Positions 11,261-63,800 of a stretch of DNA of 64,000 nucleotides are shown here, piece by piece. How positions within the stretch are numbered: the first letter of the stretch is position 1; every line of letters begins with the position of its first letter. The notes beneath the pieces were generated by a model. That model saw nothing but the letters and a program-made list of their open reading frames with translations. It ran no database searches and was not told the origin of the DNA. The position numbers and the translations under genes are program-made. Where the stretch lies: assembly GCA_001821015.1 (NCBI GenBank), contig MHRQ01000020.1, positions 44,977 to 108,976 on the forward strand. Direction: 5' to 3'. This stretch comes from Candidatus Taylorbacteria bacterium RIFCSPHIGHO2_02_FULL_46_13. GTDB lineage: Bacteria; Patescibacteriota; Minisyncoccia; Phycocordibacterales; DSPV01.

Positions 11261-11318
11261 CACTATACACACTATTAATAGTTACGCTATAGCGTAATTA
11301 TTAATAGTGTGTATAGTG
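11261..11318. repeat. 58-bp near-perfect palindrome (1 mismatch) with ACGCTATAGCGT core flanked by TATTAATAG arms
   Basis: CACTATACACACTATTAATAGTTACGCTA | TAGCGTAATTATTAATAGTGTGTATAGTG read directly from sequence. Confidence 0.85.
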
Positions 11319-11389: not shown

Positions 11390-11959
11390 ATGGGAACACT
11401 TGAACAGCAATCTAGAATACGAACCAGAAATACCAAGATTACACGCGCAATCATCACAACCTTAGCAGTTGCCGTTGCGGGTGCGCTCAATCCCCAAGGA
11501 CTAGTGCGAGGTGTATTGAAATCTCTGAATGCCCCCAATAACAAACGACTTTCGTCAGAGAACGCTATTTATGCGGCGCGCCGACGTTTAGCCAAGCGGG
11601 GATTGATTGTATACGAAGGTAATTTTTGGAAGATAACTGAGAGGGGGAAGCGTGAGCTTGAGATTATGCAAATCGGCAGTGTTCCTCTACCTCGTCCGAA
11701 AAAGTGGGATAAGAAGTGGAGGATACTAATTTTTGATATTAGAGAAGAAAAAAAGGTGACGCGGGACAAAGTTCGGCGCACGTTGGGTTCGATTGGTTTC
11801 CATCGGTTGCAAGACAGTGTGTGGGTTTACCCGTATGACTGCGAAGATCTGATCGCGCTTTTGAAGGCCGATTTCAAGATAGGGAAGGATTTACTCTACA
11901 TCATCGCGGACGAGATAGAGAATGATGTCTTTCTTAAAAAGGAGTTTCAGCTTGGCTAG
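11390..11959 (+). CDS. Putative PaaX-family-like transcriptional regulator (winged HTH plus C-terminal W...FDI...R..VRR.L...GF..LQ.SVW domain)
   Basis: C-terminal WDKKWRILIFDIREEKKVTRDKVRRTLGSIGFHRLQDSVWVYP resembles the PaaX C-terminal domain. Family call from memory of the motif only. Confidence 0.45.
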   Translation: MGTLEQQSRIRTRNTKITRAIITTLAVAVAGALNPQGLVRGVLKSLNAPNNKRLSSENAIYAARRRLAKRGLIVYEGNFWKITERGKRELEIMQIGSVPLPRPKKWDKKWRILIFDIREEKKVTRDKVRRTLGSIGFHRLQDSVWVYPYDCEDLIALLKADFKIGKDLLYIIADEIENDVFLKKEFQLG

Positions 11960-19839: not shown

Positions 19840-19871
19840 ACGCCCGTTCTCCGCACGTGTCTTTTTTGAGT

Positions 19872-20030
19872 TTATTGCCAAGCGAGTGAGCGGAGAGAAA
19901 AAGTATCTTCTTTTTATCTCCCGAGCGAGCGATGGCAACAAAGGGTTTACTACCCCACGGCTTGCCGCGGGTGAGTACGCGGGGAGCGTGTCCCTCATGC
20001 GGGGCTTGCCCCGCGGTATAATACCCTTTA
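19872..20030. repeat. Hairpin repeat family, copy A (long form with GC-rich palindromic insert)
   Basis: TTATTGCCAAGCGAGTGAGCGGAGAGAAAAAGTATCTTCTTTTTATCTCCCGAGCGAGCGATGGCAACAAAGGGTTTACTACC...GGTATAATACCCTTTA. Near-identical to 24095..24253. Confidence 0.85.
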
Positions 20031-20441
20031 TTTTTTTAGGCATTTTTTGAATTCCTCGTAGTTTCTAATGTAATCTTTTTCATCATAGAGACTGTCAAAG
20101 AGGGCGAGTGTGACGGTATCTTTTTTGAAATTTTTCATAACGTGCCATACATACGGTTCAAGCACGAGACCTTCTTCCGGATGTGAAAGCGTCACGGTGG
20201 TTTTTTCAGCGCCGTTGTCCAATTCTACATCACATCCTCCTGAAAGAACCATAAAAACCTGTCTGCTCTGGTGATGAGTGTGAGCACCTCTCGGCTCGCT
20301 ACTTTCTGTGCATTTAGTTACGAGAGTTCTCTTTATGGTAAACGGAACCTCGCCCGCGTTCTTTCCTTCTTGAAACATAGTGAGAGCTCCATTTTTGGTT
20401 TCAAAGGATGGGAATTTTATTATGGTATAGAGTTTTTTCAT
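20028..20441 (-). CDS. FdtA/WxcM-like cupin sugar 3,4-ketoisomerase
   Basis: [27 protein letters not shown] ... YVWHVMKNF ... [20 protein letters not shown] fits the FdtA pattern (His pair, cupin fold, C-terminal YDE.DYIR). Confidence 0.6.
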
Positions 20442-24082: not shown

Positions 24083-24094
24083 GGTAAGTCTTTT

Positions 24095-24253
24095 TATTGC
24101 CAAGCGAGTGAGTGGAGAGAAAAAGTATCTTCTTTTTCTCTCCCGAGCGAGCGACGGCAACAAAGGGTTTACTACCCCACGGCTTGCCGCGGGTGAGTAC
24201 GCGCACAGCGCGTTTTTCATGCGGGGCTTGCCCCGCGGTATAATACCCTTTAT
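24095..24253. repeat. Hairpin repeat family, copy B (long form)
   Basis: TTATTGCCAAGCGAGTGAGTGGAGAGAAAAAGTATCTTCTTTTTCTCTCCCGAGCGAGCGACGGCAACAAAGGGTTTACTACCCCACGGCTTGCCGCGGG...GGTATAATACCCTTTAT. Confidence 0.85.
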
Positions 24254-36381: not shown

Positions 36382-36398
36382 GCCGAGATATATGTTCT

Positions 36399-36488
36399 TT
36401 ATTGCCTAGCGAGCGAGGGGGAGAGAAAAAGTATCTTCTTTTTCTCTCCCGAGCGAGCGACGGCAACAAAGGGTTTACTACCCTTTAT
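36399..36488. repeat. Hairpin repeat family, copy C (short form)
   Basis: TTATTGCCTAGCGAGCGAGGGGGAGAGAAAAAGTATCTTCTTTTTCTCTCCCGAGCGAGCGACGGCAACAAAGGGTTTACTACCCTTTAT. Confidence 0.85.
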
Positions 36489-36584
36489 GCACTATTCAAT
36501 GAGCCGCGTGATCCACATCGCGCGGCTTTTTTGTGTTCGTATAACCCGGTGTTCCTTGCTTACTAGATATGTTTTGGTATAGTA

Positions 36585-38906: not shown

Positions 38907-39154
38907 TGGTTTAGGGTACAGGGGAGAGGGTAGAGCATGGTGTTAATAGGCGCGCATTCGGTGAGCGCATTTCCAAGCTATTGAACCATAACGATTCATT
39001 TGACTTTATTAAGCATATATGCTAAGCTCTCCAGTGTGAGTGCTAGCCGACGCTAGCCCTAACGAATGTCTGCGAAAAACCCAGCGAAAGCGGGGTTTTT
39101 CGTTTCTGTTTTTAGCCTTTCTGCTATACTATAAGTTGCAACCCAAACAAATTT

Positions 39155-39242
39155 TATTGCCTAGCGAGTGAGCGAAGAGAAAAAGTATACTCTTTTTCTC
39201 TCCCGAGCGAGCGACGGCAACAAAGGGTTTAATACCCTTTAA
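39155..39242. repeat. Hairpin repeat family, copy D (short form)
   Basis: TTATTGCCTAGCGAGTGAGCGAAGAGAAAAAGTATACTCTTTTTCTCTCCCGAGCGAGCGACGGCAACAAAGGGTTTAATACCCTTTAAT. Confidence 0.85.
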
Positions 39243-39268
39243 TCAAAATTTGAAAACGGGTACATTGC

Positions 39269-39343
39269 GCCAAACTATGGCCGGCGGTTGCACTCATATA
39301 AGACATTAGTTTTAGGAGCTGGCCCCGCCGGCCATAGTTTGGC
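39269..39343. repeat. Perfect 19-bp inverted repeat (GCCAAACTATGGCCGGCGG ... CCGCCGGCCATAGTTTGGC) with 37-nt loop, 20 nt upstream of murB
   Basis: Read directly; arms at 39269..39287 and 39325..39343. Confidence 0.9.
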
Positions 39344-43924: not shown

Positions 43925-43942
43925 ACGTCCCCGCCCGACACG

Positions 43943-43976
43943 CCGACTAGTAGTCATTTGCTAGTCGGTTTTTTTA
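43943..43976 (+). terminator. Rho-independent terminator (CCGACTAG-loop-CTAGTCGG + T7)
   Basis: 8-bp perfect stem followed by TTTTTTT. Confidence 0.7.
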
Positions 43977-44038: not shown

Positions 44039-44575
44039 ATGCTCATTCCTAGAGCCAAAATAAAAGAATTTTGCCGAGAAAACAGCATTGCAGGAATTGT
44101 TGGTTTTTTTGCGCACCTCTCCAAACATTTTCAGAATTTCAAATCATTCTTAGGGCGTGCAGGTATTTCAACACCAAACCCACCGGTCTCGGTCCTTTTC
44201 CATGGTTCTCAGACACACCTTGATAATCTAGACCCAAGTATCTCCACCGGGGAAGGTAATTTAAATTACGAAAAATCTCTAGTCTATGCGACAGATAATC
44301 CTAACTACGCCGTATTTCTTGCAGTTATTGATCTCGCGGAGGGTAGCAACGCTTCGGTTTTGGTTGAAGATAATAAAACACTCTTGAGCATCGACATTGG
44401 TTTTGTGAATGGACACTCACAGATAAAAGACGGGTATGTCCATGTTGTTGACGGCACACAGTTTAAGCTAAATGACAATGACGAATACGTATCACAACAA
44501 CCCGCTCGAATTCTATTTTCTGTCAAAGTGAAACCGTCTGACCTTACCGAGAAAATCTATTTAAAGATAGACTGA
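44039..44575 (+). CDS. Hypothetical protein
   Basis: 178-aa complete ORF; no recognisable motif. Confidence 0.45.
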   Translation: MLIPRAKIKEFCRENSIAGIVGFFAHLSKHFQNFKSFLGRAGISTPNPPVSVLFHGSQTHLDNLDPSISTGEGNLNYEKSLVYATDNPNYAVFLAVIDLAEGSNASVLVEDNKTLLSIDIGFVNGHSQIKDGYVHVVDGTQFKLNDNDEYVSQQPARILFSVKVKPSDLTEKIYLKID

Positions 44576-44578
44576 ACT

Positions 44579-45034
44579 ATGACCAACTGCATCTTCTGTA
44601 AAATTGCAAAAGGAGAGGCGCCAAGCTATAAGATTTGGGAGAATGAGAAACACCTTGCGTTTCTTTCGATTTTCCCAAACACTGAAGGGTTCTCGGTGGT
44701 AATCACTAGGGAGCACAACCCAAGCTACGCGTTTGATAATCCCGACAAGATACTTTCGGGCTTAGTTTTGGCAGCCAAGAAAGTTGGCAAACTTATTGAT
44801 GAAAAACTTCCCGATGTTGGGAGAACAGGAATGATTCTTGAAGGTTTCGGCGTTGACCATTTACACGCTAAACTATTTCCTATGCACGGAACAGAGAATT
44901 TGAAGGAATGGAAGCCGATTAAATCTAAGGTCGACAAGTTTTTCGAGAAATACGAGGGCTACATCTCATCGCACGATTGGGAACGAGCTGATGATGCAAA
45001 ATTAGCTGAATTAGCAAGGAAAATACGTGAATAA
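44579..45034 (+). CDS. HIT-family (histidine triad) nucleotide hydrolase/transferase
   Basis: MTNCIFCKIAKGE N-terminus and HLHAKLFP histidine-triad variant. Confidence 0.7.
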   Translation: MTNCIFCKIAKGEAPSYKIWENEKHLAFLSIFPNTEGFSVVITREHNPSYAFDNPDKILSGLVLAAKKVGKLIDEKLPDVGRTGMILEGFGVDHLHAKLFPMHGTENLKEWKPIKSKVDKFFEKYEGYISSHDWERADDAKLAELARKIRE

Positions 45035-45036
45035 AA

Positions 45037-45092
45037 TTTTCCCATTAGTACGACATTTCAAGAAGTGCAGAATGTTGAATACCGAAGAGCAT
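45037..45092. repeat. 56-bp direct repeat, copy 1 (immediately upstream of pyrD)
   Basis: TTTTCCCATTAGTACGACATTTCAAGAAGTGCAGAATGTTGAATACCGAAGAGCAT; 53/56 identical to 46264..46319. Confidence 0.9.
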
Positions 45093-45141
45093 CAAAAGCT
45101 CATGACATAAAAAAACTAGAGGGCATGACGACAACGTTTGT

Positions 45142-46275
45142 ATGAAAAACATCCTCTTTGCTTTCAGAGATACCATACTTGCTTTTTGTTACAGGGCATT
45201 CGCACGCCCTATCTTCTTTCGTATAGATCCCGAAGTCGTGCATGACATGACGGTGCGCTTCGGCGCGTTCTTGGGAGAGCGCCGTATCACCCGATGCATC
45301 GTCAGAAGCCTTTTTTCGTACGAGCACCCTATGCTTGAGCAGACGATCCGAGGTGTCCATTTTCAAAACCCTTTGGGACTTGCGGCCGGTTTCGATAAAG
45401 ATGCCTATCTCACGAGTGTAATGGGAGCGGTCGGGTTCGGGTTTGAAGAAATCGGGTCGGTGACTGGGGAAGCTTGCGAGGGTAACCCTAAGCCGCGTCT
45501 CTGGCGCATGCAGAAATCCGAAGGTCTTGTCGTACACTATGGCCTCAAGTCGCAAGGGAGCCAGAAAGTTTCCGAGAGACTTCGTATGAAAACATTCAGC
45601 ATACCGGTGGGCATAAGTATCGCACGAACGAATTCGCAGGATACCATTGAAACTGAGGCGGGGATACAGGATTATCTGAAAGTCTACCAAGCTTTTTCTG
45701 ATAGTGGTGATTATTATACGATCAATATCAGTTGTCCCAATGTCTTTGGTGGCCAACCGTTCACCGACGCCCCCCGGCTTGCGAGGTTGCTCGATGCGAT
45801 AGATGCGTTGCCTAAGAAAAAGCCGATTTTCATAAAACTCTCTCCCGATCTGTCTGAAAAAGAGATTGACGGCATACTCATTGTTGCCTCAACGCATAAG
45901 ATTGACGGGTTTGTATGCACGAATCTTACCAAAGAGCGCAAAGGCAACGAATGTATCCTTGATAAAAACATTCCGAACGAAGGGGGAATGAGCGGGAAAG
46001 TGGTATCTGAAAAATCAGATCGTTTGATTCGGTATATATACCGGAAGTCCCGCGGTGTCTATGATATCATTGGTTGCGGCGGCGTGTTTTCAGCTGACGA
46101 CGCATACCGTAAGATAAAACTCGGAGCATCGCTCATCGAGCTTATAACCGGCATGGTCTACGAGGGTCCCCAAGTCATAAGCGAGATTAACCGAGGTTTG
46201 GTTCGATTGCTAGTAAAAGACGGGTATCGTCATATTTCGGAGGCGGTTGGTGTGGAGAATCGGTTTTCCCATTAG
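45142..46275 (+). CDS. pyrD: Dihydroorotate dehydrogenase, class 2 (quinone-type)
   Basis: GLAAGFDKDA, FGFEEIGSVT, NISCPN, and C-terminal glycine-rich FMN-binding region. Confidence 0.85.
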   Translation: MKNILFAFRDTILAFCYRAFARPIFFRIDPEVVHDMTVRFGAFLGERRITRCIVRSLFSYEHPMLEQTIRGVHFQNPLGLAAGFDKDAYLTSVMGAVGFGFEEIGSVTGEACEGNPKPRLWRMQKSEGLVVHYGLKSQGSQKVSERLRMKTFSIPVGISIARTNSQDTIETEAGIQDYLKVYQAFSDSGDYYTINISCPNVFGGQPFTDAPRLARLLDAIDALPKKKPIFIKLSPDLSEKEIDGILIVASTHKIDGFVCTNLTKERKGNECILDKNIPNEGGMSGKVVSEKSDRLIRYIYRKSRGVYDIIGCGGVFSADDAYRKIKLGASLIELITGMVYEGPQVISEINRGLVRLLVKDGYRHISEAVGVENRFSH

Positions 46276-46319
46276 TACGACATTTCAAGAAGTGCGGAAT
46301 GTTGAATATAGAAGAGCAT
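46264..46319. repeat. 56-bp direct repeat, copy 2 (overlaps pyrD stop codon)
   Basis: TTTTCCCATTAGTACGACATTTCAAGAAGTGCGGAATGTTGAATATAGAAGAGCAT. Confidence 0.9.
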
Positions 46320-46385
46320 TTTGGATTTAAGAAGAAATCGTTGGAACTTTAAATAATACCATTTGGATAACATCTTAAGGGCACT

Positions 46386-46820
46386 ATGGAAGATAAGAAA
46401 GATAACCTAACTAAGTATGACCTTCATAAAGTTGGGGGTATATTGCTAAAGGAGAGAAAGCTTCTTATATGCAGAACAAAAGGGAAAAAGTCTTTTATTG
46501 CACCTGGAGGAAAATTGAAGAAAGGAGAAGGTGTTATACAGGCATTACAGAGAGAATTAAAAGAAGAGTTGAGTATATCGGTTCTTGACAGTGATATATC
46601 AGAATTCGGAGTATTTTATGCTCCTGCGGCAGAAGATGAAAAAAATATATTACGAATGGATGTATTTTTGGTAAAGAGATGGGAGGGGGCACTTAAGCCG
46701 AGTAGTGAAATAGATGAAATCGCTTGGATTAGTACTAACTTTCCTGAAACCATGAGTATCGGGTCCATCTTCGAGCATCAGGTAATTCCTCGGCTTAAAC
46801 AACGGGGGATGATAGATTAG
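46386..46820 (+). CDS. NUDIX hydrolase (MutT-like)
   Basis: Nudix box GGKLKKGEGVIQALQRELKEELS. Confidence 0.7.
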   Translation: MEDKKDNLTKYDLHKVGGILLKERKLLICRTKGKKSFIAPGGKLKKGEGVIQALQRELKEELSISVLDSDISEFGVFYAPAAEDEKNILRMDVFLVKRWEGALKPSSEIDEIAWISTNFPETMSIGSIFEHQVIPRLKQRGMID

Positions 46821-46855
46821 TTTAGTAGTGCAGAGAAACATAAAAAGTACCAAGT

Positions 46856-47422
46856 ATGAAAATTATTTTGGGTTCAGCATCGAAGTGGCGCAAAGGGGTA
46901 ATTGATACGATGGGATTTGAGTATGAAGTTATGTCACCTGATATAGATGAAAAGGCGATACGACTTCGTGACCCTGATAAGCTCGTTTTAGCGCTGGCAG
47001 AGGCGAAGGCTAAGGCGCTTCTTACCAAAGTAAAAGAACCTGCGCTTATAATTACTGGCGATCAAGTGGTTGTCTGGAACGGACAAATTCGTGAGAAACC
47101 ACAAAATGAAAAGGAAGCCGGGTATTTTCTGGAATCTTATTGCGAGCACCCTGCAGAAACTCATAGCGCGGTCATGGTTACTAATACCGCAAACGGTAAA
47201 CATGCGATGGGCGTGGATGTGGCACGTGTCTACTTCAAAAATATACCAAAAGAAATAATAGATGAGGTTGTCAAAAAGGGTGCGATTTACACTACTGCAG
47301 GTGGAATCCAGATGGAAGACGCGCTTCTTGCTCCTTATATAGAGAGAATTGACGGAACCGTTGATAGCCTAAAAGGTTTGCCCAAAGCGTTGCTTACTAA
47401 GCTCATGGAGGAAGTAAAATGA
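46856..47422 (+). CDS. maf: Maf-family nucleoside triphosphate pyrophosphatase
   Basis: MKIILGSASKWRKGVIDTMGFEYEVMSPDIDEK..., LALAEAKAKAL. Confidence 0.75.
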   Translation: MKIILGSASKWRKGVIDTMGFEYEVMSPDIDEKAIRLRDPDKLVLALAEAKAKALLTKVKEPALIITGDQVVVWNGQIREKPQNEKEAGYFLESYCEHPAETHSAVMVTNTANGKHAMGVDVARVYFKNIPKEIIDEVVKKGAIYTTAGGIQMEDALLAPYIERIDGTVDSLKGLPKALLTKLMEEVK

Positions 47423-47883
47423 AAATAACGCTTTGCGGCAGTATTGCGTTCTATAAAGAGATGGAATCGGTGCGAGACCAGCTTTTAAAACTTGGTCACG
47501 TAGTAAAAATACCAGAATTAGCCCTTGAGGTTCCCCAAGAGTTTGGAAGTGGCAAGAAAGTATATTTTGGAAAATATATTGAAGAAAAAGGAGGCATGGA
47601 CGCGTTTCCTGTCGGGCATAAGATATGGAATCTCAAAGAAGGAGCTATTAGAGACCATTACGAGAAAATTGACTGGGCTGATGCCATTTTGGTCGTCAAT
47701 CACGAAAAGCGTGGGATTGAAGGTTATATCGGCGGTAATACACTTATTGAAATCGGTGTTTCCTTTTATTTGAAAAAACCGATTTATATTTTACATCCGG
47801 TGTCTTCTGAACTTTCTTACAAGCAGGAGATTTTAGGAATGAAGCCAATTATGCTGGATGGCGATATTTCAAAAATTAGTTAG
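47419..47883 (+). CDS. Putative nucleoside 2-deoxyribosyltransferase-like (NDT/Rcl/DNPH1 superfamily) protein
   Basis: MKITLCGSIAF N-terminus and GGNTLIEIGVSFYLKKPIYIL (resembles the ...GTAFEIGYAYALGKPV nucleophile region). Tentative. Confidence 0.35.
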   Translation: MKITLCGSIAFYKEMESVRDQLLKLGHVVKIPELALEVPQEFGSGKKVYFGKYIEEKGGMDAFPVGHKIWNLKEGAIRDHYEKIDWADAILVVNHEKRGIEGYIGGNTLIEIGVSFYLKKPIYILHPVSSELSYKQEILGMKPIMLDGDISKIS

Positions 47884-48331
47884 AATGAGAGGCATGCCAA
47901 AAGATTGCTCATTTTGCAGTAGCCAAGAAATTAAAGATCGTACTATTACGAAAACGGATTTGGTGCGTGTCTTTCCAACGAATATTCCTATTGTCCCGGG
48001 GCATATACTTATAACTTCGATCAGGCACGTCCAAACGATAAACGAGCTTACCATAGAAGAACGTGAAGCGATATTTGCATTAATTGCCACCTTACGGACA
48101 GCATTACAGAAAATATTTGGTGCCGAAGGATTTAATTTTGCGTGGAATGAAGGCGAGTTGGCAGGACAATCTATTCCGCATGTGCATTTACATATGTTGC
48201 CGAGAAAACCTGGTGATGGAGGAATTACTAAATATGAGCCACGCGATTTCTTATATAGGCCCGGTTCACGTGAAGTCTCGCCCGAGGCAGAACTTGCAGA
48301 CGTTGTATCGCTGATACAGAAGGCGTTGTAG
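47858..48331 (+). CDS. HIT-family protein (second copy); true start probably at MRGMPKDCSFC (47885) or MPKDC (47894)
   Basis: CSFCSSQEI N-terminus and HVHLHML histidine triad. Confidence 0.7.
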   Translation: MAIFQKLVRMRGMPKDCSFCSSQEIKDRTITKTDLVRVFPTNIPIVPGHILITSIRHVQTINELTIEEREAIFALIATLRTALQKIFGAEGFNFAWNEGELAGQSIPHVHLHMLPRKPGDGGITKYEPRDFLYRPGSREVSPEAELADVVSLIQKAL

Positions 48332-48367
48332 TTGCAAAAAGATAGCAAAGAAAGTTATCATGCCAGG

Positions 48368-49054
48368 ATGAAAGCAGTTATTTTAGCTGCGGGAGAAGGG
48401 AAGCGAATGGGACCGCTCACCGTTGATATACCCAAGCCGATGTTGCGCCTTGCAGGACGCCCGCTTCTTGAGCATTTATTGGAATCGCTTCCTGCATCGG
48501 TTGATGAGGTAATTTTGGTAGTGGGATATCGGGCTGACCAAATTAAAGCTCACTTCGGAGAGCACTTTGGTCGTTTCCGTATTCATTATGTACATCAAGA
48601 AAAACCTGAAGGGACGGCACGAGCGCTCGCACTGTCAAAACATTTGCTTGGTCAAGAAAGATTTCTGTCTTTATATGCTGATGATCTGCATGGCAGGGAT
48701 GACCTGGAGGCGCTTTTAAAGTATCCGCTTTCAGTACTTGTAAAAGAAGTCTCCAACCCGGAGCGTTTTGGTGTGGTGGAGCTTTCCGATAACGGTAAAG
48801 TTGTGTCTATCGTGGAGAAGCCATCAGAGCCGAAGAATAATCTTGTGGTAACTGGCCCTGCAGTGCTTGATAAACGGATTTTTGAATTTGAACCGCCCGA
48901 GCATGCAAGCGGTGAATTTTTTCTTGCTGAGGCTATCGGAAAACTGGTGGAGCATCATCCCGTCGTTGCGGTTGTCCAGAAATTCTGGATGCCGATAGGA
49001 TACCCAAAAGACTTGGAAAAAGCGCAGCTGTGGTTTAAGGTTAAACAAATATGA
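48368..49054 (+). CDS. Sugar-phosphate nucleotidyltransferase (short form, no LbH tail)
   Basis: MKAVILAAGEGKRMGPLTVDIPKPML. Start moved to the Met that begins the conserved G-rich motif. Confidence 0.7.
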   Translation: MKAVILAAGEGKRMGPLTVDIPKPMLRLAGRPLLEHLLESLPASVDEVILVVGYRADQIKAHFGEHFGRFRIHYVHQEKPEGTARALALSKHLLGQERFLSLYADDLHGRDDLEALLKYPLSVLVKEVSNPERFGVVELSDNGKVVSIVEKPSEPKNNLVVTGPAVLDKRIFEFEPPEHASGEFFLAEAIGKLVEHHPVVAVVQKFWMPIGYPKDLEKAQLWFKVKQI

Positions 49055-50271
49055 AATTATACACACCTCCAAAAAAGATTTTAGAACGATACGCCGATGT
49101 CTTGGTAAACTTTGCGCTTGGCGGCGGGAAGGGAATTAAAAAAGGTGAGGTGGTGCACCTGATTGCATATGAAGCAGCCAAACCTCTCTATCGGGAACTG
49201 AAGATTGCGATTCTGAAAGCCGGCGGGCACGTAATCGGAGACTACCGCCCCGACAGTGGAGACCGGTTCCCGTTTGATAGAGATTTTTTTGAGCACGCAA
49301 AACCGCACCAGCTCGCATTTTTCCCACGCCAATACGCAAAAGGCATGGTGAATCAAGTTGACCACTCAATATTTATTTTAAGCGAAATAGACAAGCACGA
49401 GCTTGAAGGGATTCCTCCGGCAAAAATTATGCAGAGAGGCCTTGCATGGAAGCCGTATATGGATTGGCGACGCGATAAAGAAGACCAAGGAAAGTACACT
49501 TGGACGTTAGCACTATATGGCACTGAAGCTGAAGCAAAAGAAGCGCGGATGTCACTGCCCGCGTATTGGCAGCAAATCATCAAAGCGTGTTTGTTGGATA
49601 AAAAAGATCCGATTGCGGCATGGAAAAAATTGTATCGCGAGCTAGAAAAGACGCGCGCGAAGCTTAATGCACTGCCGATAGAAAAATTGCATATCGTTGG
49701 GCCTGACGCAGACTTGTGGATTCACCTAGGCAAGAAACGAGCGTGGATGGGCGGTAGTGGCCGCAATATTCCAAGTTTTGAATTATTCACGTCGCCCGAT
49801 TGGCGCGGAACTGAAGGGTGGATTCGTTTCAATCAGCCGCTCTATCGCTATGGGGTGCTCATTGAAGGCGTGCAACTTTGGTTTAAAAACGGACATGTGA
49901 TTAAAGCTGCCGCAAAGAAAAATGAGAAAGTGCTCAAAGAAATGATAGCGACAAAGAATGCCGATCGGGTAGGCGAGTATTCTCTGACAGACCGGCGCTT
50001 CTCGCGCATCACGAAATTCATGGCAGAAACGCTCTTTGATGAAAATATCGGTGGGCCGAATGGCAATACGCACTTGGCGCTTGGCAATTCTTACCACGAC
50101 TGTTTTATTGATGACCCCGGCGAGCTTTCTCCAGAAGATTGGCAGGAGTTAGGCTATAACGAATCATCAGTGCACACCGACATCATCTCTACCGCACCTC
50201 GGACCGTCACCGCAGTCATGCGCGATGGTAAAACCAAAATCATCTACAAAAACGGCCAGTTTAAACTCTAA
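49051..50271 (+). CDS. Aminopeptidase, probable M29 (AmpS/PepS) family
   Basis: N-terminal ERYADVLVNFALGGGKGIKKGEVVHLIAYEAAKPLYREL pattern and ~400 aa size. Family call from memory. Confidence 0.55.
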   Translation: MKLYTPPKKILERYADVLVNFALGGGKGIKKGEVVHLIAYEAAKPLYRELKIAILKAGGHVIGDYRPDSGDRFPFDRDFFEHAKPHQLAFFPRQYAKGMVNQVDHSIFILSEIDKHELEGIPPAKIMQRGLAWKPYMDWRRDKEDQGKYTWTLALYGTEAEAKEARMSLPAYWQQIIKACLLDKKDPIAAWKKLYRELEKTRAKLNALPIEKLHIVGPDADLWIHLGKKRAWMGGSGRNIPSFELFTSPDWRGTEGWIRFNQPLYRYGVLIEGVQLWFKNGHVIKAAAKKNEKVLKEMIATKNADRVGEYSLTDRRFSRITKFMAETLFDENIGGPNGNTHLALGNSYHDCFIDDPGELSPEDWQELGYNESSVHTDIISTAPRTVTAVMRDGKTKIIYKNGQFKL

Positions 50272-57830: not shown

Positions 57831-60800
57831 ATGTCAGAAAATAACGGGCACATATTTCTACAAGGGAAAAAATATATTTCATCTCGTCTCTGTGCAGAGA
57901 TTTCAAAATATTCACATGACTACGTTGGTCAGCTTTGCCGTAGTGGCAAACTTGAGTGTACCCGTGTAGGAAGAGCCTGGTATGTAGGCGAAGCATCACT
58001 CTTTAATCACCTCAAAGAAAACTCTCCTTCAGAGTATGTGAAGCGCGTGAGTGCAAGAGCTGTCAGTAGTGATGCTGTGTATACCGAGATATCCACTGCG
58101 TCCAGAACCGAAGAAATAAAAAGTGCTGCCCGTTCTGCTGCCCGTGAAGAAATTAAATATTTCCACGATGACAGAGTACTGTTGCCCACGTTACCTCCAC
58201 TCGTAACTACCCAAGGGAGAGATACTTCCAAAAAAATTCCTCGTTTGCTTTCTCCCTACCACAAGAATTTTTCGCTCGCGACAATTTCACATCCAAATTC
58301 TGTTAATAAAGTCGGGGCTCTCATGCTCTCGGTGGTGCTTACGGTTGGGGTAGTAATGTTTAAAAATACGGTTGATGTCACCGAGGCGTTGCATGGAATT
58401 TCACGAACGGCAAAGTCTATCAGCACGCTCGCACCATATCTGACCGCGGATACGTTTGCCGATGGAGCACGTGTGTATGCACATGAAAGTCTTGAATCGT
58501 TTGGTAAGTTGCTGTCCGAATTTAGAACTCGCTCCACCCGATTTGCAAAAATTGTTGTGGACAGCGCGTTATCTCTGGAGCGTGAAGTTGCAAAAGATCC
58601 CATCGGTTTCGCGCGCGACGCTGGAAGTGCTTACCGTGCTACGGTCTTTGACGGGACACGTCAGGCATTTATATATAATACTGGCACGTTCGCGCTCGCC
58701 ATTAACGGTTTAGAACAGAAATCTGGATTTACATTTTCCTTAAGCTCCCTTGCGCGTAGTGTCAATCGGAGCATCAATGATTTTGTCGTAGGGCTCTTTA
58801 CCACACCGGCGACGTATGTATATCTACCTCCTGTTCAAAACAGCCAGAACAGTGCACCCGCTCCGTCAAGTCGCTTTATTGTTCAAAATATCTATCCAAG
58901 CACCGAGCACACGACGAATCAAGTCTCTGCCGGGGGTATCACACGGGCTGAATTTGAAACCCGCTTAAGCATTCTAAGCAACAAGTTCACTTCCGATTTG
59001 AGCCTATTTTCAGATCGGACTTTTGGGAGCACCATCTATGTGCCATCACCGAGTTTGTCCCAAGAAATTGCTCACTCTCAAAGAATTGACCACCTGACAG
59101 GGACGCTGATCACCACCCCATCCATTGTCGGGGGTTCCATTACAGACGCGAGTATCTCTGGAGGGACTCTTTCGGGTGTATCCATCACAGGACTCTCTAG
59201 TTCGTTTGGTTCACTCTCGGTTACCGGTACGGGTACCTCAACGTTTGTTGGAGGTGTTTCCAGCCAGACCATCTTCCAAGGTTCGACCTTGGAGGGTGGT
59301 CGTGGGCAGTTCGGTGTCATCGTTTCTACCTCCACTACTGCCACAAGTACATTTTCCGGTGATGTTGCTTTTGACAGTGACACTCTGTACGTAGATTCAC
59401 TGAACAACCGTGTTGGTGTTGGGACTTCATCACCGACTGATACATTCTCTGTTAACGGTCCGATTTTTCTCTCAAACGTAGCTCCGGCCAATACCTCCAA
59501 TCGCCTCTACGCAAATGCGAGCTCTCTTTATTGGGCCGGCAATTTAATCGGTGGAGCGACGACGGGCAACTGGACGACCGATGGTACGAATGCTTGGAGA
59601 GCAACCGGCAACGTCGGCATTGGCACCACCTCTCCTTACGCCAAGTTGTCGGTTGAACATCTCTCAACCACCGGCACAGTCATTGGCGCCGACGCGCTCA
59701 CGGGATTTACCGGAAATCTTTTGGATTTGAAAGTCGCCTCCACCACCAAGTTCTCAATCAATCAAAGTGGCGATCTTCTTACGATGGGCTCCACCACTCT
59801 CCAAGGTTTAACCTTTGTTAACGCGACGGGCACTAATGCGACGACTACCAATTTTTACGCCAGCAATTCTCTCTCTGTTCTAGGCGGAACCTTTCTTAGC
59901 GGAAGTCTGACTTCCACATACTCTGGCACCTCCACTTATTCTGGCGGTCTTTACGCTTCGCTTCTCTCCGCCCCATACTTCAATGCCACCTCCACCACTG
60001 TTGACTCAGTTTTAAATCGCTTCGTCAGCATCTTTGGCACGACCACCAACGCCACTTCAACCAATTTTTACGCAACCAACCTCGTTGCCGGAAACGCCAC
60101 CACCACCTCTTTCTTTGCCACTCTCGGACGGTTTGTGGATTCGTTCTTCTCGTCCTCCTCCGTTGGACAGTTGACGGTGGGCTCCATCACGGCCACGTCA
60201 ACGACGGCTACGTCCACGTTCCAGAATCTCTCCTTTGTCAGTGGCACGTCCACGAACAGCTTCTCCTCGTTCAACTTCACGGGTACGAATGCCACCACGA
60301 CCTCACTGTTTGCAAACATTGCACGAATCGTAGATTCGTTCTTTGCGTCAAGCTCGGTTGGGAACTCGACGGTAGGTTCACTGACCTCCACCTCCACCGC
60401 CACCTTCACCCAAGCTACGTCCACCTCCTTCTTCACCTCAATTTTCAACTCGGTCTCTTCGGTCTTCTCATCTGTCATCACCGGCACTTCCACAATCGGC
60501 GACCTTAACGCCACCTCCTCAATCAAACTAACTTACACCGGCGCCAATATGCTCATCACAACCGACGGGACAGGGAAGTTGGTTTCTTCTTCCACTCCAA
60601 CGGCGGCAAATTATCTTGCCACCTCAACTACAGCGACTTCAACATTTGCAGGGGGCTTGAGTGTCGCAGGCACTGCTGGACTGACCGTCTTGCAGAATGG
60701 GAATGTGGGGATTGGCGATGATTCTCCCCTATCTCTTCTCACGGTTGGCAACGGCGATCTTTTCCAGATCAATTCTTCTGGGCAAGTCGGTGTGCTGACA

Positions 60801-63800
60801 GCTCCTGTGTCTGACTATCTCATGACACTGAACGATTCTGTAAATAATAGTAGTAGTCGTATTATCGATATCACTCAAGCTGATAGTACAAATGAAAACA
60901 GTTATGGGATCTATTCAACTAACACTGTCAATCTCGGCACCCTTTCTTCTGGTGTATCTCGAACCCTTGCTGGTATGTATCAGAATTTAACCCCTACCGC
61001 TAATTTAAACTTCAGCTCGGGAATTACTGCGAATGTAACAGTTTCTGGCGTTAATAATAATATCAATTTAAGTAATATCTCTTTTGCTGATTCTAATAAA
61101 TCCACATCTGTTGTTACGTATGGAGATTATTCAGCTATTTCAGGATCACCAACAGTTACTGATATAAACAGTATTCAATCCAACTCACTATCAGTTTCTG
61201 GTACTTATAATACTGTCGGTGTTACACCGACGTGGAGCGGTTCTCTTAATGATGATATGACTTTTACTTCTCATGGAGGATATTTTGAAAATACATCCTC
61301 CAGTGCTGGCGATGCGCTTCTAACTTCAAGGGCGTATGGCGTATACGGAGTGTCAACCGGAAATCTGACCACCACCGGTGATACTATTCATTACGGCGGC
61401 TATTTTCAGGCCGGCGGAACTGCTGATACAAACTACGGACTTTATGTCGATTCGAGCGACGCTACTACGAACTATGGAATATATTCTGCGGCTACGGGAC
61501 AGAGTTATTTTGCCGGCAACGTCGGGATAGGCACCACTTCGCCATACGCCAAACTTTCAGTTGTGGGCCAAACAGTGGCGGCCTACTTCACGGCGACGAC
61601 GACCGCCACCTCCACCTTCCCCACACTCCTCACCACCAACGCAACCTCCTCCAGCTTCGCCATCACGAATCTTACCTCCACTCTCCTCAAAACTAATTCC
61701 TTCGGTTCAGTTATCCCAGCTGTAGCCGGCACTGACTACGCGCTAGGGAACGTTGCGTATCCGTTCACCCCTTCAGTCGCTTGGGGAGCGTTGGCACAAG
61801 CAACCACTTCTCTCTTGGCCTTTCCACAGGGGCTCATAGCTTCAGGAACGATAGGACGATTGACTGTCGGTTCTTTGACAGCAACCTCAACAGTGTCTTT
61901 CCCTGCTTCTTCTATTACGAATACAATGCTTCTAAACAGCACGATTTCAGGCGTGGCTTTGGGCGGGACACTCTTTGCTTTAACTAATAACGATACTCTG
62001 GGCGGCTCCTCGTATGACGGAAGCTCCGCTATTTCGGATTGGGGCATCAATCTTGGAAATGCAAACACATGGACAGCGGCTCAATTATTCAACTACACCG
62101 CGACCACTTCATTTTCAGGGGGACTGTATGCTTCCTTGATTTCCTCGCCTTACTTCCACGCCACCTCCACGACAGCCACTTCAACATTCTCTGGTGGAAT
62201 TTCAGGAGCGCACGCATCTCTTTCCGCAGGACTTATTGTTTCTGGCGGCAACGTCGGCATCGGGACTTCGACTCCGCAGAACAAGTTGAATGTTGTGGGG
62301 GATTTGAATGTGGTGACTTCTGGTAGTGCTTTGCCGACGCTTTATGCGAACACTTCAGGGAATGTTGGAATCGGGACGGCGGCGCCAGATTCAGGCTCAC
62401 GATTGCATGTAGTAGGTCCTTCTTTTGGACAACTAAGGGTAGAAACAGCCAACAGCGGTATAAATGGTCCTGGTATACTTATTATGAACTCAGCCGCTTC
62501 GGGTGCAAAAAACTGGGTAGTCGGTGCTAATCAGAATGCTAGCAATTTGTTTGAAATCACTCCCTCAACAGCAAATGACGGAACTACATTCTCAACGCCA
62601 AATTTGTCAATAGCAGGAGCAACCGGCAACGTCGGCATCGGGACGACGTCACCTGTCTCAAAATTGTCAGTGTCGGGGGGAGCGTCTGTGGGAGCAGACT
62701 ACAACATCGCGGCCCCGACGAATGGAATGATAATACAAGGCAACGTCGGCATCGGGACGACGTCACCTGTCTCAAAATTGTCAGTGTTAGGTGAATCAGC
62801 TTTCGCAGGAGGTGCTAGTGTCGGTATTGGTTACGCGGGAACTGCGGCTCCAACGGGAGGATTAATAATTCAAGGCAACGTCGGCATCGGGACAACAGGC
62901 CCCAGTCGCTCATTGCATATAGCTCAATCTGAATCGATTGCTTACCTAAACACAACCTCAACCAGCCCCGGGTTCCACTCCATGCTTATATTAGAGGCGC
63001 AAGGCTCTGCTAATAACTACTCCCAAGTTCGCTATATGAACCAGGGAACTTCCTACTTCTCGGCTGGCATTGATCCCCAGAATAGTTTTGCCTACTCCAT
63101 TGCTAACGGCTCAAATGTTAACGTCAATCCTCGTCTGACGATCACAACTGGCGGCAACGTCGGGATTGGGACGACGAGTCCGACGGCACGATTAGAAGTT
63201 GGTGATGGTGATGGGCTTGAGCTTCTTTATATTAACGGTGGAAATTCTGGTTCCGCAATGGGAGTAGGCATTTACTTAAACAATGCTGGCACACCACGCA
63301 ATGCTATAGGTAATTATAGCGCGATTGTGGGAGGAACTTTTAGTAGCGATTTGATGTTCTATAATGAGGGCTCTACAAATAATAAGATTCATTTTCACAA
63401 CAATGGCGGTGTAAAAATGGTAATAGATAGCTCCGGCAACGTCGGCATCGGGACGACCAGCCCCCTTTACAAATTATCAGTTGAGTCCACTTCCGAAGGA
63501 AACATGTTCCAAATTTACGACACCGATGGCAATTGTCTCCTAGATCCCGACTCCGGAGGCATCACCACCACCTGTTCATCAGACATCAGATTAAAGACAA
63601 ATATTACTGACGCACAACCTGTTCTGTCATATCTTGCAAACATTCCAATCAAAGATTACACCGTCATCGCTTCGGGAGATCAGAGAACCGGTGTGGTCGC
63701 CCAAGAACTTCTCGCTTCCGGCTACAGCGATCTCGTGCACATGGGTCCGGACGGCTATTATGGCGTCTCGGAAATCAGCTCATGGAAATTGATAAAAGGG

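Follow-up and report, generated by a model that had tools for sequence, protein, structure and literature searches.

A pyrD gene bracketed by 56-nt direct repeats in a nucleotide-metabolism gene cluster of a Candidatus Taylorbacteria genome

The window analyzed here is a 64,000-nt stretch of a Candidatus Taylorbacteria genome. It contains a co-directional cluster of nucleotide-metabolism genes that runs from p178 and a HIT gene, past the site occupied by pyrD, to NUDIX, Maf, p154 and a second HIT gene and onwards. The only gene bracketed by the direct repeat TTTTCCCATTAGTACGACATTTCAAGAAGTGC(A/G)GAATGTTGAATA(CC/TA)GAAGAGCAT is pyrD (Table 1). The two 56-nt copies are identical at 53 of 56 positions and are spaced 1227 nt from start to start. 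Their first 32 nt are the same in both, and the three differences, at repeat positions 33, 46 and 47, represent two or three mutational events. When the 32-mer was searched with up to 3 mismatches (<=3), just 2 copies were found in the 64 kb, against 0.00 expected from 100 shuffles.

Table 1 Features at the pyrD locus, in window positions
Feature	Position	Strand	Remarks
HIT-family hydrolase, resident left flank	44579..45034	+	PF01230; SecA lies upstream here and in L024
Repeat copy 1, 56 nt	45037..45092	+	starts 2 nt past HIT stop codon
Left part of repeat, ancestral HIT 3' flank	45037..45067	+	27/30 match with L024, window 45038-45067
Inter-repeat segment, 1171 nt (49-nt leader + pyrD codons 1-374)	45093..46263	+	putative inserted DNA
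pyrD ORF, 377 aa, class-2-type dihydroorotate dehydrogenase	45142..46275	+	PF01180, E=1.4e-62
Repeat copy 2, 56 nt	46264..46319	+	followed by a 66-nt spacer, then NUDIX
NUDIX-144, resident right flank	46386..46820	+	PF00293; orthologues downstream of SecA in L189/L190 and L191

The first-pass annotation had described 56-bp repeats with the same degree of identity around pyrD alone, one copy just past the HIT stop codon and the other over the pyrD stop codon. We recovered the same coordinates and sequence, and measured the offsets as 2 nt from the HIT stop codon (TAA, 45032-45034) to copy 1 and 9 nt from the start of copy 2 to the pyrD stop codon. Because copy 2 starts 9 nt before that stop, the last three codons of pyrD (FSH) and its TAG (46273-46275) are repeat sequence, and the 1171-nt segment between the repeats carries no stop codon of its own. 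Homologues of pyrD terminate at ...AVGxxN(K/R)(F) followed by the stop, and the repeat begins at the natural C-terminus of pyrD. The edges of the repeat are sharp: neither the 60 nt before the copies nor the 49 and 66 nt after them show residual similarity, which rules out a longer, decayed duplication.

The best PDB matches of the pyrD product are quinone-dependent dihydroorotate dehydrogenases (DHODHs; 8ofw at 7e-55, the human enzyme at about 7e-53), against about 1e-14 for class 1. The catalytic base in the N-x-S-S-P-N motif is a serine in class 2 DHODHs and a cysteine in class 1. By its DHO_dh fold, its N-terminal extension and its closest similarity to class-2 enzymes, the predicted protein would belong to the quinone-dependent class 2, with the qualification that the class-2 catalytic serine is not present, NISCPN aligning with NVSSPN of 8ofw. 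C198 of pyrD is invariant in 19 CPR/DPANN homologues. The two length calls for this protein (314 and 377 aa) are gene-caller differences and not mutations.

The first-pass annotation had suggested that pyrD may have been recently acquired since CPR bacteria often lack pyr genes, and had proposed GC content and codon usage as a check. This suggestion did not hold up: members of the pyrD family occur widely across CPR and DPANN genomes, and pyrD itself is typical of the genome in GC (z=+1.4) and codon divergence (z=-0.7). The native-like codon usage does not support a distant, recent horizontal transfer. The compositional outlier is instead the neighboring NUDIX gene, though synteny marks it as resident. 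As that annotation had also proposed, we looked for other pyr genes, and found none among the 55 ORFs scanned (1-57.3 kb). The nearest pyrD relative is just 61% identical, and thus a donor cannot be named. The contrast between HIT relatives (85-91% identical) and pyrD (61%) is not a valid sign of horizontal transfer. The conservation of HIT is unusual and extends to DPANN archaea (67-86%), SecA of the closest relative found (locus L024) is just 69% identical, and no relative of NUDIX-144 exceeds 61% either; sampling of the lineage is simply sparse. Our literature search returned no papers on pyrD in CPR bacteria or Parcubacteria.

The state of the site without pyrD can be partly read from relatives. 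In L024, SecA and HIT are followed directly by 27 of 30 nt of the left half of the repeat; there is no pyrD, and a different gene lies downstream. Homology between the window and L024 is continuous from HIT and stops at 45067 (blastn, 78.8% identity over 165 nt, window 44903-45067). The downstream gene of L024 encodes a NUDIX protein that is not orthologous to NUDIX-144 (28% identity), and the idea that the right half of the repeat is a remnant of its 5' end was discarded, the similarity being not significant. L189 has the order SecA...NUDIX-144-type...ABC-ABC2-MYG1-Obg and L191 has SecA-NUDIX-144-type, both without pyrD, and the NUDIX-144 orthologues in L189/L190 and L191 are 57-59% identical. 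By this gene order, both flanking genes, HIT and NUDIX-144, are resident. More broadly, pyrD was found within about 6 kb of HIT at 0 of 90 HIT-anchored loci, and HIT, NUDIX-144 or Maf stood beside pyrD at 0 of 75 pyrD-anchored loci. In relatives, synteny is broken at the site downstream of HIT.

The 56-mer was in none of about 190 other loci, except for the homologous site in L024, which has no second copy within its 14 kb. A motif scan of viral contigs gave no match, nor did one of a metagenome contig collection, which carries little weight because the collection evidently does not include the window's own contig. The first-pass annotation had suggested comparing synteny with relatives and had named a generic repeat as the finding that would speak against an insertion. 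Sites without pyrD do exist in L024, L189 and L191, and in no sequence searched does the 56-mer behave as a generic repeat.

Together, the L024 flank, the synteny without pyrD and the counts at the HIT- and pyrD-anchored loci argue that the repeat is a duplicated host spacer. For the left 30 nt, the host origin is seen directly in L024. The right 24 nt are not demonstrably ancestral, as they occur in no fetched locus and are not similar to the downstream gene of L024, and a truly empty site (HIT-56mer-NUDIX-144) was not found among the loci searched; that all 56 nt stood in the ancestral spacer is thus what we suppose. Over the 30 nt in which 3 positions separate the window from L024, the two copies do not differ from each other, in keeping with a duplication that postdates the split between the two lineages.

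We then propose, with moderate confidence, that pyrD entered by a single, lineage-specific, duplicative illegitimate insertion into the roughly 124-nt spacer between HIT and NUDIX, and that the repeat is host spacer. A fragment of 1171 nt, made up of a 49-nt leader followed by pyrD as far as its last conserved codon, would have been joined into the spacer, with 56 nt of host spacer duplicated. One possible mechanism is that a break with 56-nt staggered ends was filled in on both sides of the captured fragment. Alternatively, a replicative template switch may have copied pyrD and re-entered the original template 56 nt upstream. In either version, the inserted ORF would be promoterless, and pyrD would have lost its own stop codon; it now ends at a TAG that is reached four codons inside the duplicated stretch of spacer. 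Since then, the two copies would have gained their three differences, and the structure is fixed in the sampled population.

Another explanation, which we regard as unlikely, is site-specific or Campbell-type integration. A circular pyrD cassette with a 56-nt attP-like copy would have recombined with an attB-like site after HIT, through a recombinase encoded elsewhere and acting in trans or through RecA on short homology, and the repeats would be attL and attR. The direct repeat that brackets exactly one ORF with minimal flanks would fit this, and so would the synteny break point downstream of HIT. The three differences between the copies all lie in the right 24 nt, as if a crossover had taken place in the identical 32-nt core with arms from different molecules; however, by simple counting this clustering is not significant (about 0.08-0.18). 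A GTTGAAT heptamer inside the repeat fits the integron core GTTRRRY, but the boundaries of the duplication do not match it. In addition, a circle of foreign origin would have to share 56 nt of homology with a spacer private to the host, and the 56-mer is absent from the other loci and collections described above.

The search for mobile-element hallmarks also argues against integration. No integrase, transposase or other recombinase, and no Phage_integrase-type domain, was found in the 55 scanned ORFs; the window has no tRNA or tmRNA that could have served as a target, and no terminal inverted repeats pair the ends of 45093-46263. We folded both copies as DNA, on both strands, with and without flanks, and the minimum free energies were -1.1 to -2.1 kcal/mol on either strand (z -0.2 to +0.6 against shuffles). 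Rfam gave no match to the repeat, whether at gathering score or with the cutoff relaxed to E<=1, and a scan for promoter and terminator consensus sequences found none inside it. With a fold z of about 0 and these scans empty, we rejected a reading of the repeat as an attC site, a terminator or a riboswitch. At 26 other testable pyrD loci, no flanking repeat longer than 12 nt was found and the best upstream/downstream matches were 9-12 nt, which dismisses a recurring pyrD cassette; no viral contig carried this type of pyrD. The first-pass annotation had read the locus as a gene cassette insertion. The insertion part of that reading is borne out by the relatives without pyrD, while the att-like, cassette part finds no structure, inverted repeat, tRNA, recurrence or, in the scanned ORFs, recombinase to rest on.

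The locus shares with integron gene cassettes a lone promoterless ORF, tightly flanked and oriented with transcription, and similar sequence at both boundaries. In extent, the insert comes close to exactly one ORF, which is somewhat cassette-like. In contrast to integron cassettes, there is no attC-type imperfect hairpin, no IntI in the scanned ORFs and no array, and the repeat derives from host spacer and not from an element. Integron cassettes have their boundary at G/TT of GTTRRRY, whereas here the heptamer occupies repeat positions 38-44 and the boundaries lie at 1 and 56. The att sites of genomic islands, prophages and ICEs (15-60+ bp, restoring a tRNA or the 3' end of a gene) cover the length of the repeat, and resemble it in that one copy lies directly at the 3' end of HIT, a conserved gene, and in that the differences lie outside an identical core. 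However, the repeat begins after the HIT stop codon and thus restores nothing, unlike att sites. Moreover, in contrast to islands, prophages, ICEs and CIMEs, the insert is 1.2 kb long and consists of pyrD alone, with no integrase or element genes, and its target is not a tRNA.

Target-site duplications of transposable elements typically measure 2-15 bp. The locus is like those of IS elements, transposons and casposons in that host target sequence is duplicated around an insert, as L024 attests for the left 30 nt. It differs from IS elements, transposons and MITEs in its 56-nt duplication around a bare ORF, with neither terminal inverted repeats nor, in the scanned ORFs, a transposase. Multiple copies are likewise not seen, as this pyrD protein occurs in one context and the 26 other pyrD loci have no flanking repeats. 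REP/BIME-like dispersed repeat families have many copies at unrelated intergenic sites; the 56-mer has 2 copies in the 64 kb and none in about 190 loci beyond the homologous site of L024, and further copies may lie elsewhere in the genome.

An alternative somewhat less probable than integration is that the arrangement repeat-pyrD-repeat is ancestral, and that relatives lost pyrD by recombination between the repeats, their pyrD-less sites being deletion products. The 32 nt of perfect identity would be a plausible substrate for RecA-mediated or slippage-mediated deletion, after which a single copy of the repeat would remain downstream of HIT, the state seen in L024. The native codon usage of pyrD and the commonness of its family in CPR genomes would also agree with an old resident. 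However, independent losses would be needed in L024, in L189/L190, in L191 and in all 90 HIT-anchored loci, against one gain, and the first origin of the repeats would be left unexplained. An old duplication would also need gene conversion, given that the copies are identical over the 30 nt in which the window and L024 differ at 3 positions. We therefore favor gain over loss.

The 56-mer might instead be a functional cis-element, such as a leader, an operator or a translation signal for nucleotide-metabolism genes, kept in two copies by selection or gene conversion, with its position around pyrD incidental. Each copy does stand ahead of a gene, and the genes of the cluster (HIT, pyrD, NUDIX, Maf, second HIT) belong together in function. 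The repeat contains an SD-like AAGAAG and then an ATG where the downstream gene of L024 starts. Its left 30 nt are 90% conserved in L024, against about 79% for the adjacent HIT coding DNA, but 27/30 compared with an expected 24/30 is no significant excess. The folding, Rfam and consensus searches revealed no such element. Furthermore, copy 2 overlaps the pyrD stop codon and is thus not a clean leader, the 32-nt perfect identity and sharp edges resemble a recent duplication rather than a conserved motif, and the two copies stand alone in the 64 kb, with no further copy in the 14 kb of L024. Therefore, we consider a cis-element improbable.

The same structure was found in more than 10 (>10) independent assemblies of the Rifle-aquifer (groundwater) population, including k=141 assemblies, and we conclude that assembly did not create it. 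Both copies lie within single contigs from JGI, IDBA-type (ANAN16) and MEGAHIT k=141 assemblies of different samples, and the three differences between them recur in each. All contigs from this population are 99.9-100% identical to the window, so that the close sequences represent one clonal population, and every contig with this exact pyrD protein has one and the same genomic context. Among the assembled contigs we found neither strain variants nor a pyrD-less site in this population, and every contig that spans the site has pyrD. Logan contigs, which we take to be built at k=31, break exactly at the shared 32-mer (45066; 45039-46295; 46266), as expected of a true two-copy repeat. That the structure is an artefact, or a collapsed tandem amplification of pyrD, is barely credible: the 32-mer does make a loop in the Logan de Bruijn graphs, and an array of repeat-pyrD-repeat-pyrD-repeat would collapse to the form seen, but the long-k, JGI and IDBA-type contigs agree across many samples down to the three differences, and a chimeric join would not recur independently across samples.

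The single duplicative insertion of pyrD that we favor is like insertions made by template switching (FoSTeS/MMBIR) or fill-in end joining, which share with this locus an A-R-insert-R-B arrangement, sharp junctions, the lack of recombinase signals and a one-off nature. Insertions with flanking duplication by these routes have been described mostly in eukaryotes, and we know of no work that establishes FoSTeS/MMBIR-type templated insertion as a route of gene gain in bacteria. Our literature search found no documented case of bacteria making a 56-bp target duplication through break repair or template switching, and the mechanism is thus reached by exclusion. If the donor pyrD ended in ...CGG TTT stop, the right junction could hold a TTTT microhomology; some homologues do end in F. 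Homology-facilitated illegitimate recombination in naturally transformable bacteria is alike in combining one short homologous anchor with one illegitimate junction and in using no mobile element. However, it usually replaces or deletes recipient DNA and does not duplicate it, and the donor would already need the repeat beside pyrD.

It is tempting to speculate that CPR bacteria have an undescribed route, trans-acting or recombinase-independent, by which promoterless single ORFs are inserted into operon spacers with about 50 nt of spacer duplicated, although we consider this very unlikely. If true, insertion would leave both the incoming gene and the downstream gene that it displaces with one and the same upstream context, and in this pyrD we would have the first recognized footprint of the route.

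We read the pyrD locus as a clean scar of one gene insertion; it bears no sign of a mobile cassette system and does not by itself amount to a new system. In the small CPR genomes, with their patchy gene content, recognizable mobile elements explain little of the turnover of single metabolic genes. This locus is unusually legible, as the pre-insertion sequence can be partly rebuilt from a relative, the insert corresponds almost exactly to one ORF and its junctions have been preserved, and it thus indicates that a metabolic gene can enter an operon without mobile-element machinery. The 32-nt perfect direct repeat left behind could later delete pyrD again. As a single event, the insertion of pyrD offers a case study and a template for scanning genomes for single genes flanked by duplicated host spacer.

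A 56-nt sequence that begins just downstream of the HIT-family gene recurs across the end of pyrD. The two copies are identical at 53 of 56 positions, with a start-to-start distance of 1227 nt. They differ at repeat positions 33 (A/G) and 46-47 (CC/TA), and the first 32 nt are identical. This 32-mer occurs twice in the 64-kb window when up to 3 mismatches are allowed, while shuffled sequences give an expectation of 0.00. No similarity above shuffled controls was detected beyond the copies, in the 60 nt upstream or the 49/66 nt downstream, and the edges of the duplication are sharp. The last three codons of pyrD (F-S-H) and its TAG stop are copy 2 sequence. In an alignment of 19 members, proteins of the pyrD family end in ...AVGxxN(K/R), followed in some by F, which indicates that the insert ends at the natural C-terminus of pyrD and misses just the stop codon. 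That stop codon is now provided by the duplicated spacer.

Coordinates of the pyrD locus and other features of the window
Feature	Position	Length	Remarks
HIT-family gene	44579-45034		stop TAA
Repeat copy 1	45037-45092	56 nt	starts 2 nt past HIT TAA
DNA between copies	45093-46263	1171 nt	49-nt leader and pyrD codons 1-374
pyrD	45142-46275		stop TAG
Repeat copy 2	46264-46319	56 nt	starts 9 nt before pyrD end
NUDIX gene (NUDIX-144)	46386-46820		after 66-nt spacer
Co-directional cluster	44039-50271		p178, HIT, pyrD, NUDIX, Maf, p154, second HIT, NTP-transferase, M29 peptidase
Surface-glycan biosynthesis island	1-39000		two NodU/CmcH-type carbamoyltransferases, NeuB, CMP-sugar cytidylyltransferase, DegT aminotransferase, FdtA, several epimerases/dehydratases, glycosyltransferases, Wzt/Wzm-type ABC exporter, Wzy-TPR protein
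Four-copy dispersed element	19871-20031, 24093-24253, 36398-36496, 39153-39313		intergenic
Palindrome	11261-11318	29+29 nt	no spacer
PaaX-like regulator gene	11390-11959
Irregular repeat units	59577-63481	35-75 nt each	contain GGCAACGTCGGCATCGGGAC

The closest relative found, contig L024 (JGI 3300001199; identity 69% for SecA, 54% for MurB and 89% for HIT), encodes SecA followed by HIT, and carries TTTCCCATTAGTACCGCATATCAAGAAGTG right after the HIT stop. This stretch matches positions 45038-45067 of the repeat at 27/30 nt, and a different gene begins with its start codon directly 3' of it. The DNA alignment between the window and L024 runs unbroken from the HIT 3' end across the stop codon and ends at 45067. 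Thus, the repeat is ancestral HIT-flanking sequence over its left 30 nt at least, as these are present in L024 with no pyrD there. The right 24 nt were found in no other fetched locus, and their similarity to the downstream gene of L024 is not significant; we infer that they also lay in the ancestral spacer. Copies 1 and 2 are identical within these left 30 nt, although L024 departs from the window at three positions there, which fits, on small numbers, a duplication younger than the window/L024 split. In other genomes whose HIT is 83-87% identical, neither the sequence nor the genes 3' of it are related to those of the window. The 151-aa HIT protein itself is unusually conserved, with 67-89% identity in DPANN archaea and across many CPR phyla against only 69% for the closest relative's SecA, which points to very strong constraint on the gene or to its frequent exchange. 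The gene 3' of HIT varies in almost every genome examined (HIT-anchored loci L024-L113).

What has to be explained is a 56-nt host spacer segment duplicated so that it flanks a 1.17-kb fragment left and right, with sharp junctions, no recombination signals and a single event. We consider a duplicative illegitimate insertion the most likely explanation, and judge the statement as a whole to be evenly balanced between right and wrong; we are more confident of insertion with duplication of the host spacer, and less so of any specific molecular mechanism. In one version, a captured fragment would have been ligated into a break with ends staggered by 56 nt, and the gaps then filled in. In another, a replicative template switch onto a pyrD template would have returned to a point 56 nt upstream. 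With a donor gene ending in ...CGG TTT stop, the right junction would offer TTTT microhomology, and the pyrD homologues that end in F are compatible with such a donor. That the insert corresponds so nearly to one ORF may reflect a selection effect. From p178 (44039) through to the M29 peptidase, all genes point the same way and the gaps between them are short, and a terminator-like hairpin lies upstream, at 43942-43969. An insertion would persist only if downstream genes stayed expressed and pyrD was translatable. The best analogues are template-switch or fill-in end-joining insertions with flanking duplications, described mainly in eukaryotes; our literature search found no bacterial precedent.

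The first-pass annotation had proposed a gene cassette insertion, att-like or by target duplication. The left 30 nt in L024 support insertion with duplication of the host spacer, but the cassette or att reading is not supported. The repeat does not fold on either strand (MFE -1.1 to -2.1 kcal/mol, z -0.2 to +0.6) and contains no promoter-like or terminator-like site. Rfam gave no match in the window at gathering score and none for 44500-46900 at E<=1, and the 64-kb window holds no tRNA or tmRNA gene. A Pfam scan of 55 ORFs (1-57.3 kb) detected glycan-biosynthesis genes, SecA, MurB, nucleotide house-cleaning enzymes, ABC transporters, Obg and GatB, and no integrase, transposase or other recombinase. 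The insert lacks terminal inverted repeats. A search of the viral collection did not find the repeat motif, nor does any viral contig searched encode this pyrD type. When the upstream flank was compared with the downstream flank in 26 testable other pyrD loci, the best direct matches were 9-12 nt long, versus 56 nt here by the same test, so flanking repeats are not a property of a "pyrD cassette". In the main rival reading, a small circle would have integrated at an att-like site through the action of RecA or of a recombinase whose gene lies elsewhere. Such integration would suit an insert of one ORF and copy differences that cluster outside the identical 32-nt core; however, neither recombinase, structure, recurrence nor second copy was found, and a foreign circle would have to carry the host's private spacer. 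We regard it as unlikely. The locus behaves as a target-site duplication like those of IS elements and transposons, but it has no inverted repeats or transposase, and its duplication is 56 nt, not 2-15. It differs from integron cassettes in having no attC hairpin or IntI and boundaries that are not at the core site, and from integrative elements in having no integrase, element genes or tRNA target. We classify it as an insertion scar with target duplication, not a new system.

Synteny in relatives marks pyrD as the inserted piece. Decidedly unlikely is the rival that pyrD was ancestral at the site and repeatedly lost in relatives, which would need many losses against one gain. Contigs L189/L190 (SecA 68%) keep the window's gene order, SecA ... 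NUDIX-144-type (59%) ... ABC (69%), ABC2 (53%), MYG1 (42%) and Obg (53%), with no HIT or pyrD, and in contig L191 (SecA 58%) the NUDIX-144 type directly follows SecA. HIT is thus 3' of SecA in the window and L024, NUDIX-144 in the window, L189 and L191, and pyrD stands between the two in the window only. Of 90 loci anchored on HIT, 80 of them in GTDB species genomes and 10 in metagenome assemblies, none has pyrD within ~6 kb, nor does any of 75 pyrD-anchored loci have HIT, NUDIX-144 or Maf nearby. A single gain in the window's lineage is far more parsimonious than many losses. The suspected insertion of pyrD is borne out by the pyrD-less arrangement in L024, L189/L190 and L191.

That the repeat is a conserved cis-element we find quite improbable. 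An artefact or collapsed amplification is hardly credible, since both copies show the same three differences in every contig spanning the site, including MEGAHIT k=141 assemblies. Exact-protein look-ups with pyrD (OHA26522.1) retrieved >20 contigs from JGI, ENA (MEGAHIT k=141, ANAN16 scaffolds) and Logan, and the identity of these contigs to the window is 99.9-100% throughout; the source population is from the Rifle aquifer (NCBI name Candidatus Taylorbacteria bacterium RIFCSPHIGHO2_02_FULL). Logan assembles at k=31, and its contigs end or start exactly at the common 32-mer (45066; 45039-46295; 46266), the de Bruijn graph behaviour expected of a genuine two-copy repeat. The repeats are real, and the repeat-pyrD-repeat structure is not an assembly artefact. 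The sampled population is clonal, and its contigs therefore show no polymorphic empty site. In two contigs (L003, L004) pyrD is called at 314 aa, which reflects a difference between gene callers and not a mutation.

A foreign origin of pyrD, as first suspected, is not upheld: its composition is ordinary for the genome (GC 0.486, z=+1.4; GC3 z=+1.3; synonymous-codon divergence z=-0.7), and a recent transfer from a distant donor is not supported. The premise that CPR bacteria lack pyrD was too broad, as the gene is common in CPR genomes. Among the 55 genes, the strongest compositional outlier is instead NUDIX-144 (GC 0.379, z=-2.4; codon divergence z=+4.1), which synteny in L189 and L191 nevertheless shows to be resident. 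Outside the population itself, the closest pyrD has 60-61% identity, and the best 120 matches are all 55-61%, several CPR phyla and DPANN archaea among them. We do not read this distance as evidence of horizontal transfer, since HIT is unusually conserved and the lineage is thinly sampled (nearest relatives 69% for SecA, 61% for NUDIX). The comparisons support a lineage-specific placement of pyrD, whose source would be either compositionally similar (another CPR bacterium) or elsewhere in the same genome. This CPR/DPANN DHODH family is class-2-like by length, N-terminal extension and PDB similarity. Residues 195-200 read NISCPN, with Cys at the catalytic-base position, which is Ser in class-2 enzymes (NVSSPN in 8ofw). 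All 19 homologues compared share this Cys, and the electron acceptor may thus not be quinone.

Other features were observed in the window. The cluster around pyrD has mostly nucleotide house-cleaning functions; p178 and p154 have no Pfam match, and an unrelated contig from Rifle, L116, carries a p154 homologue (29% identical; 1461-1865) directly 3' of its pyrD. The four-copy element, with no Rfam family match, has a sharp left edge and an invariant core of ~86 nt, TTTATTGCC...GGAGAGAAAAAGTATCTTCTTTTTCTCTCCC (a near-perfect hairpin), then GAGCGAGCGACGGCAACAAAGGGTTTACTACCC. Its copies 1 and 2 share ~170 nt at 94% and lie 4.2 kb apart, around five genes of the large glycan island. The perfect-type palindrome, 97% complementary and ~70 nt upstream of the PaaX-like regulator gene, could be an operator. 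The many repeat units near the window's end, irregularly spaced at ~110-280 nt, probably encode a repeat-rich protein continuing past it.

pyrD is the sole pyr gene that Pfam identified in the 55 ORFs scanned (1-57.3 kb), and is embedded among nucleotide-hydrolysing enzymes. It is very doubtful that the locus reflects a general way in which genes are inserted with spacer duplication in CPR bacteria; it is a clean, instructive single event. With a perfect 32-nt direct repeat around it, pyrD could plausibly be lost precisely at a later stage.
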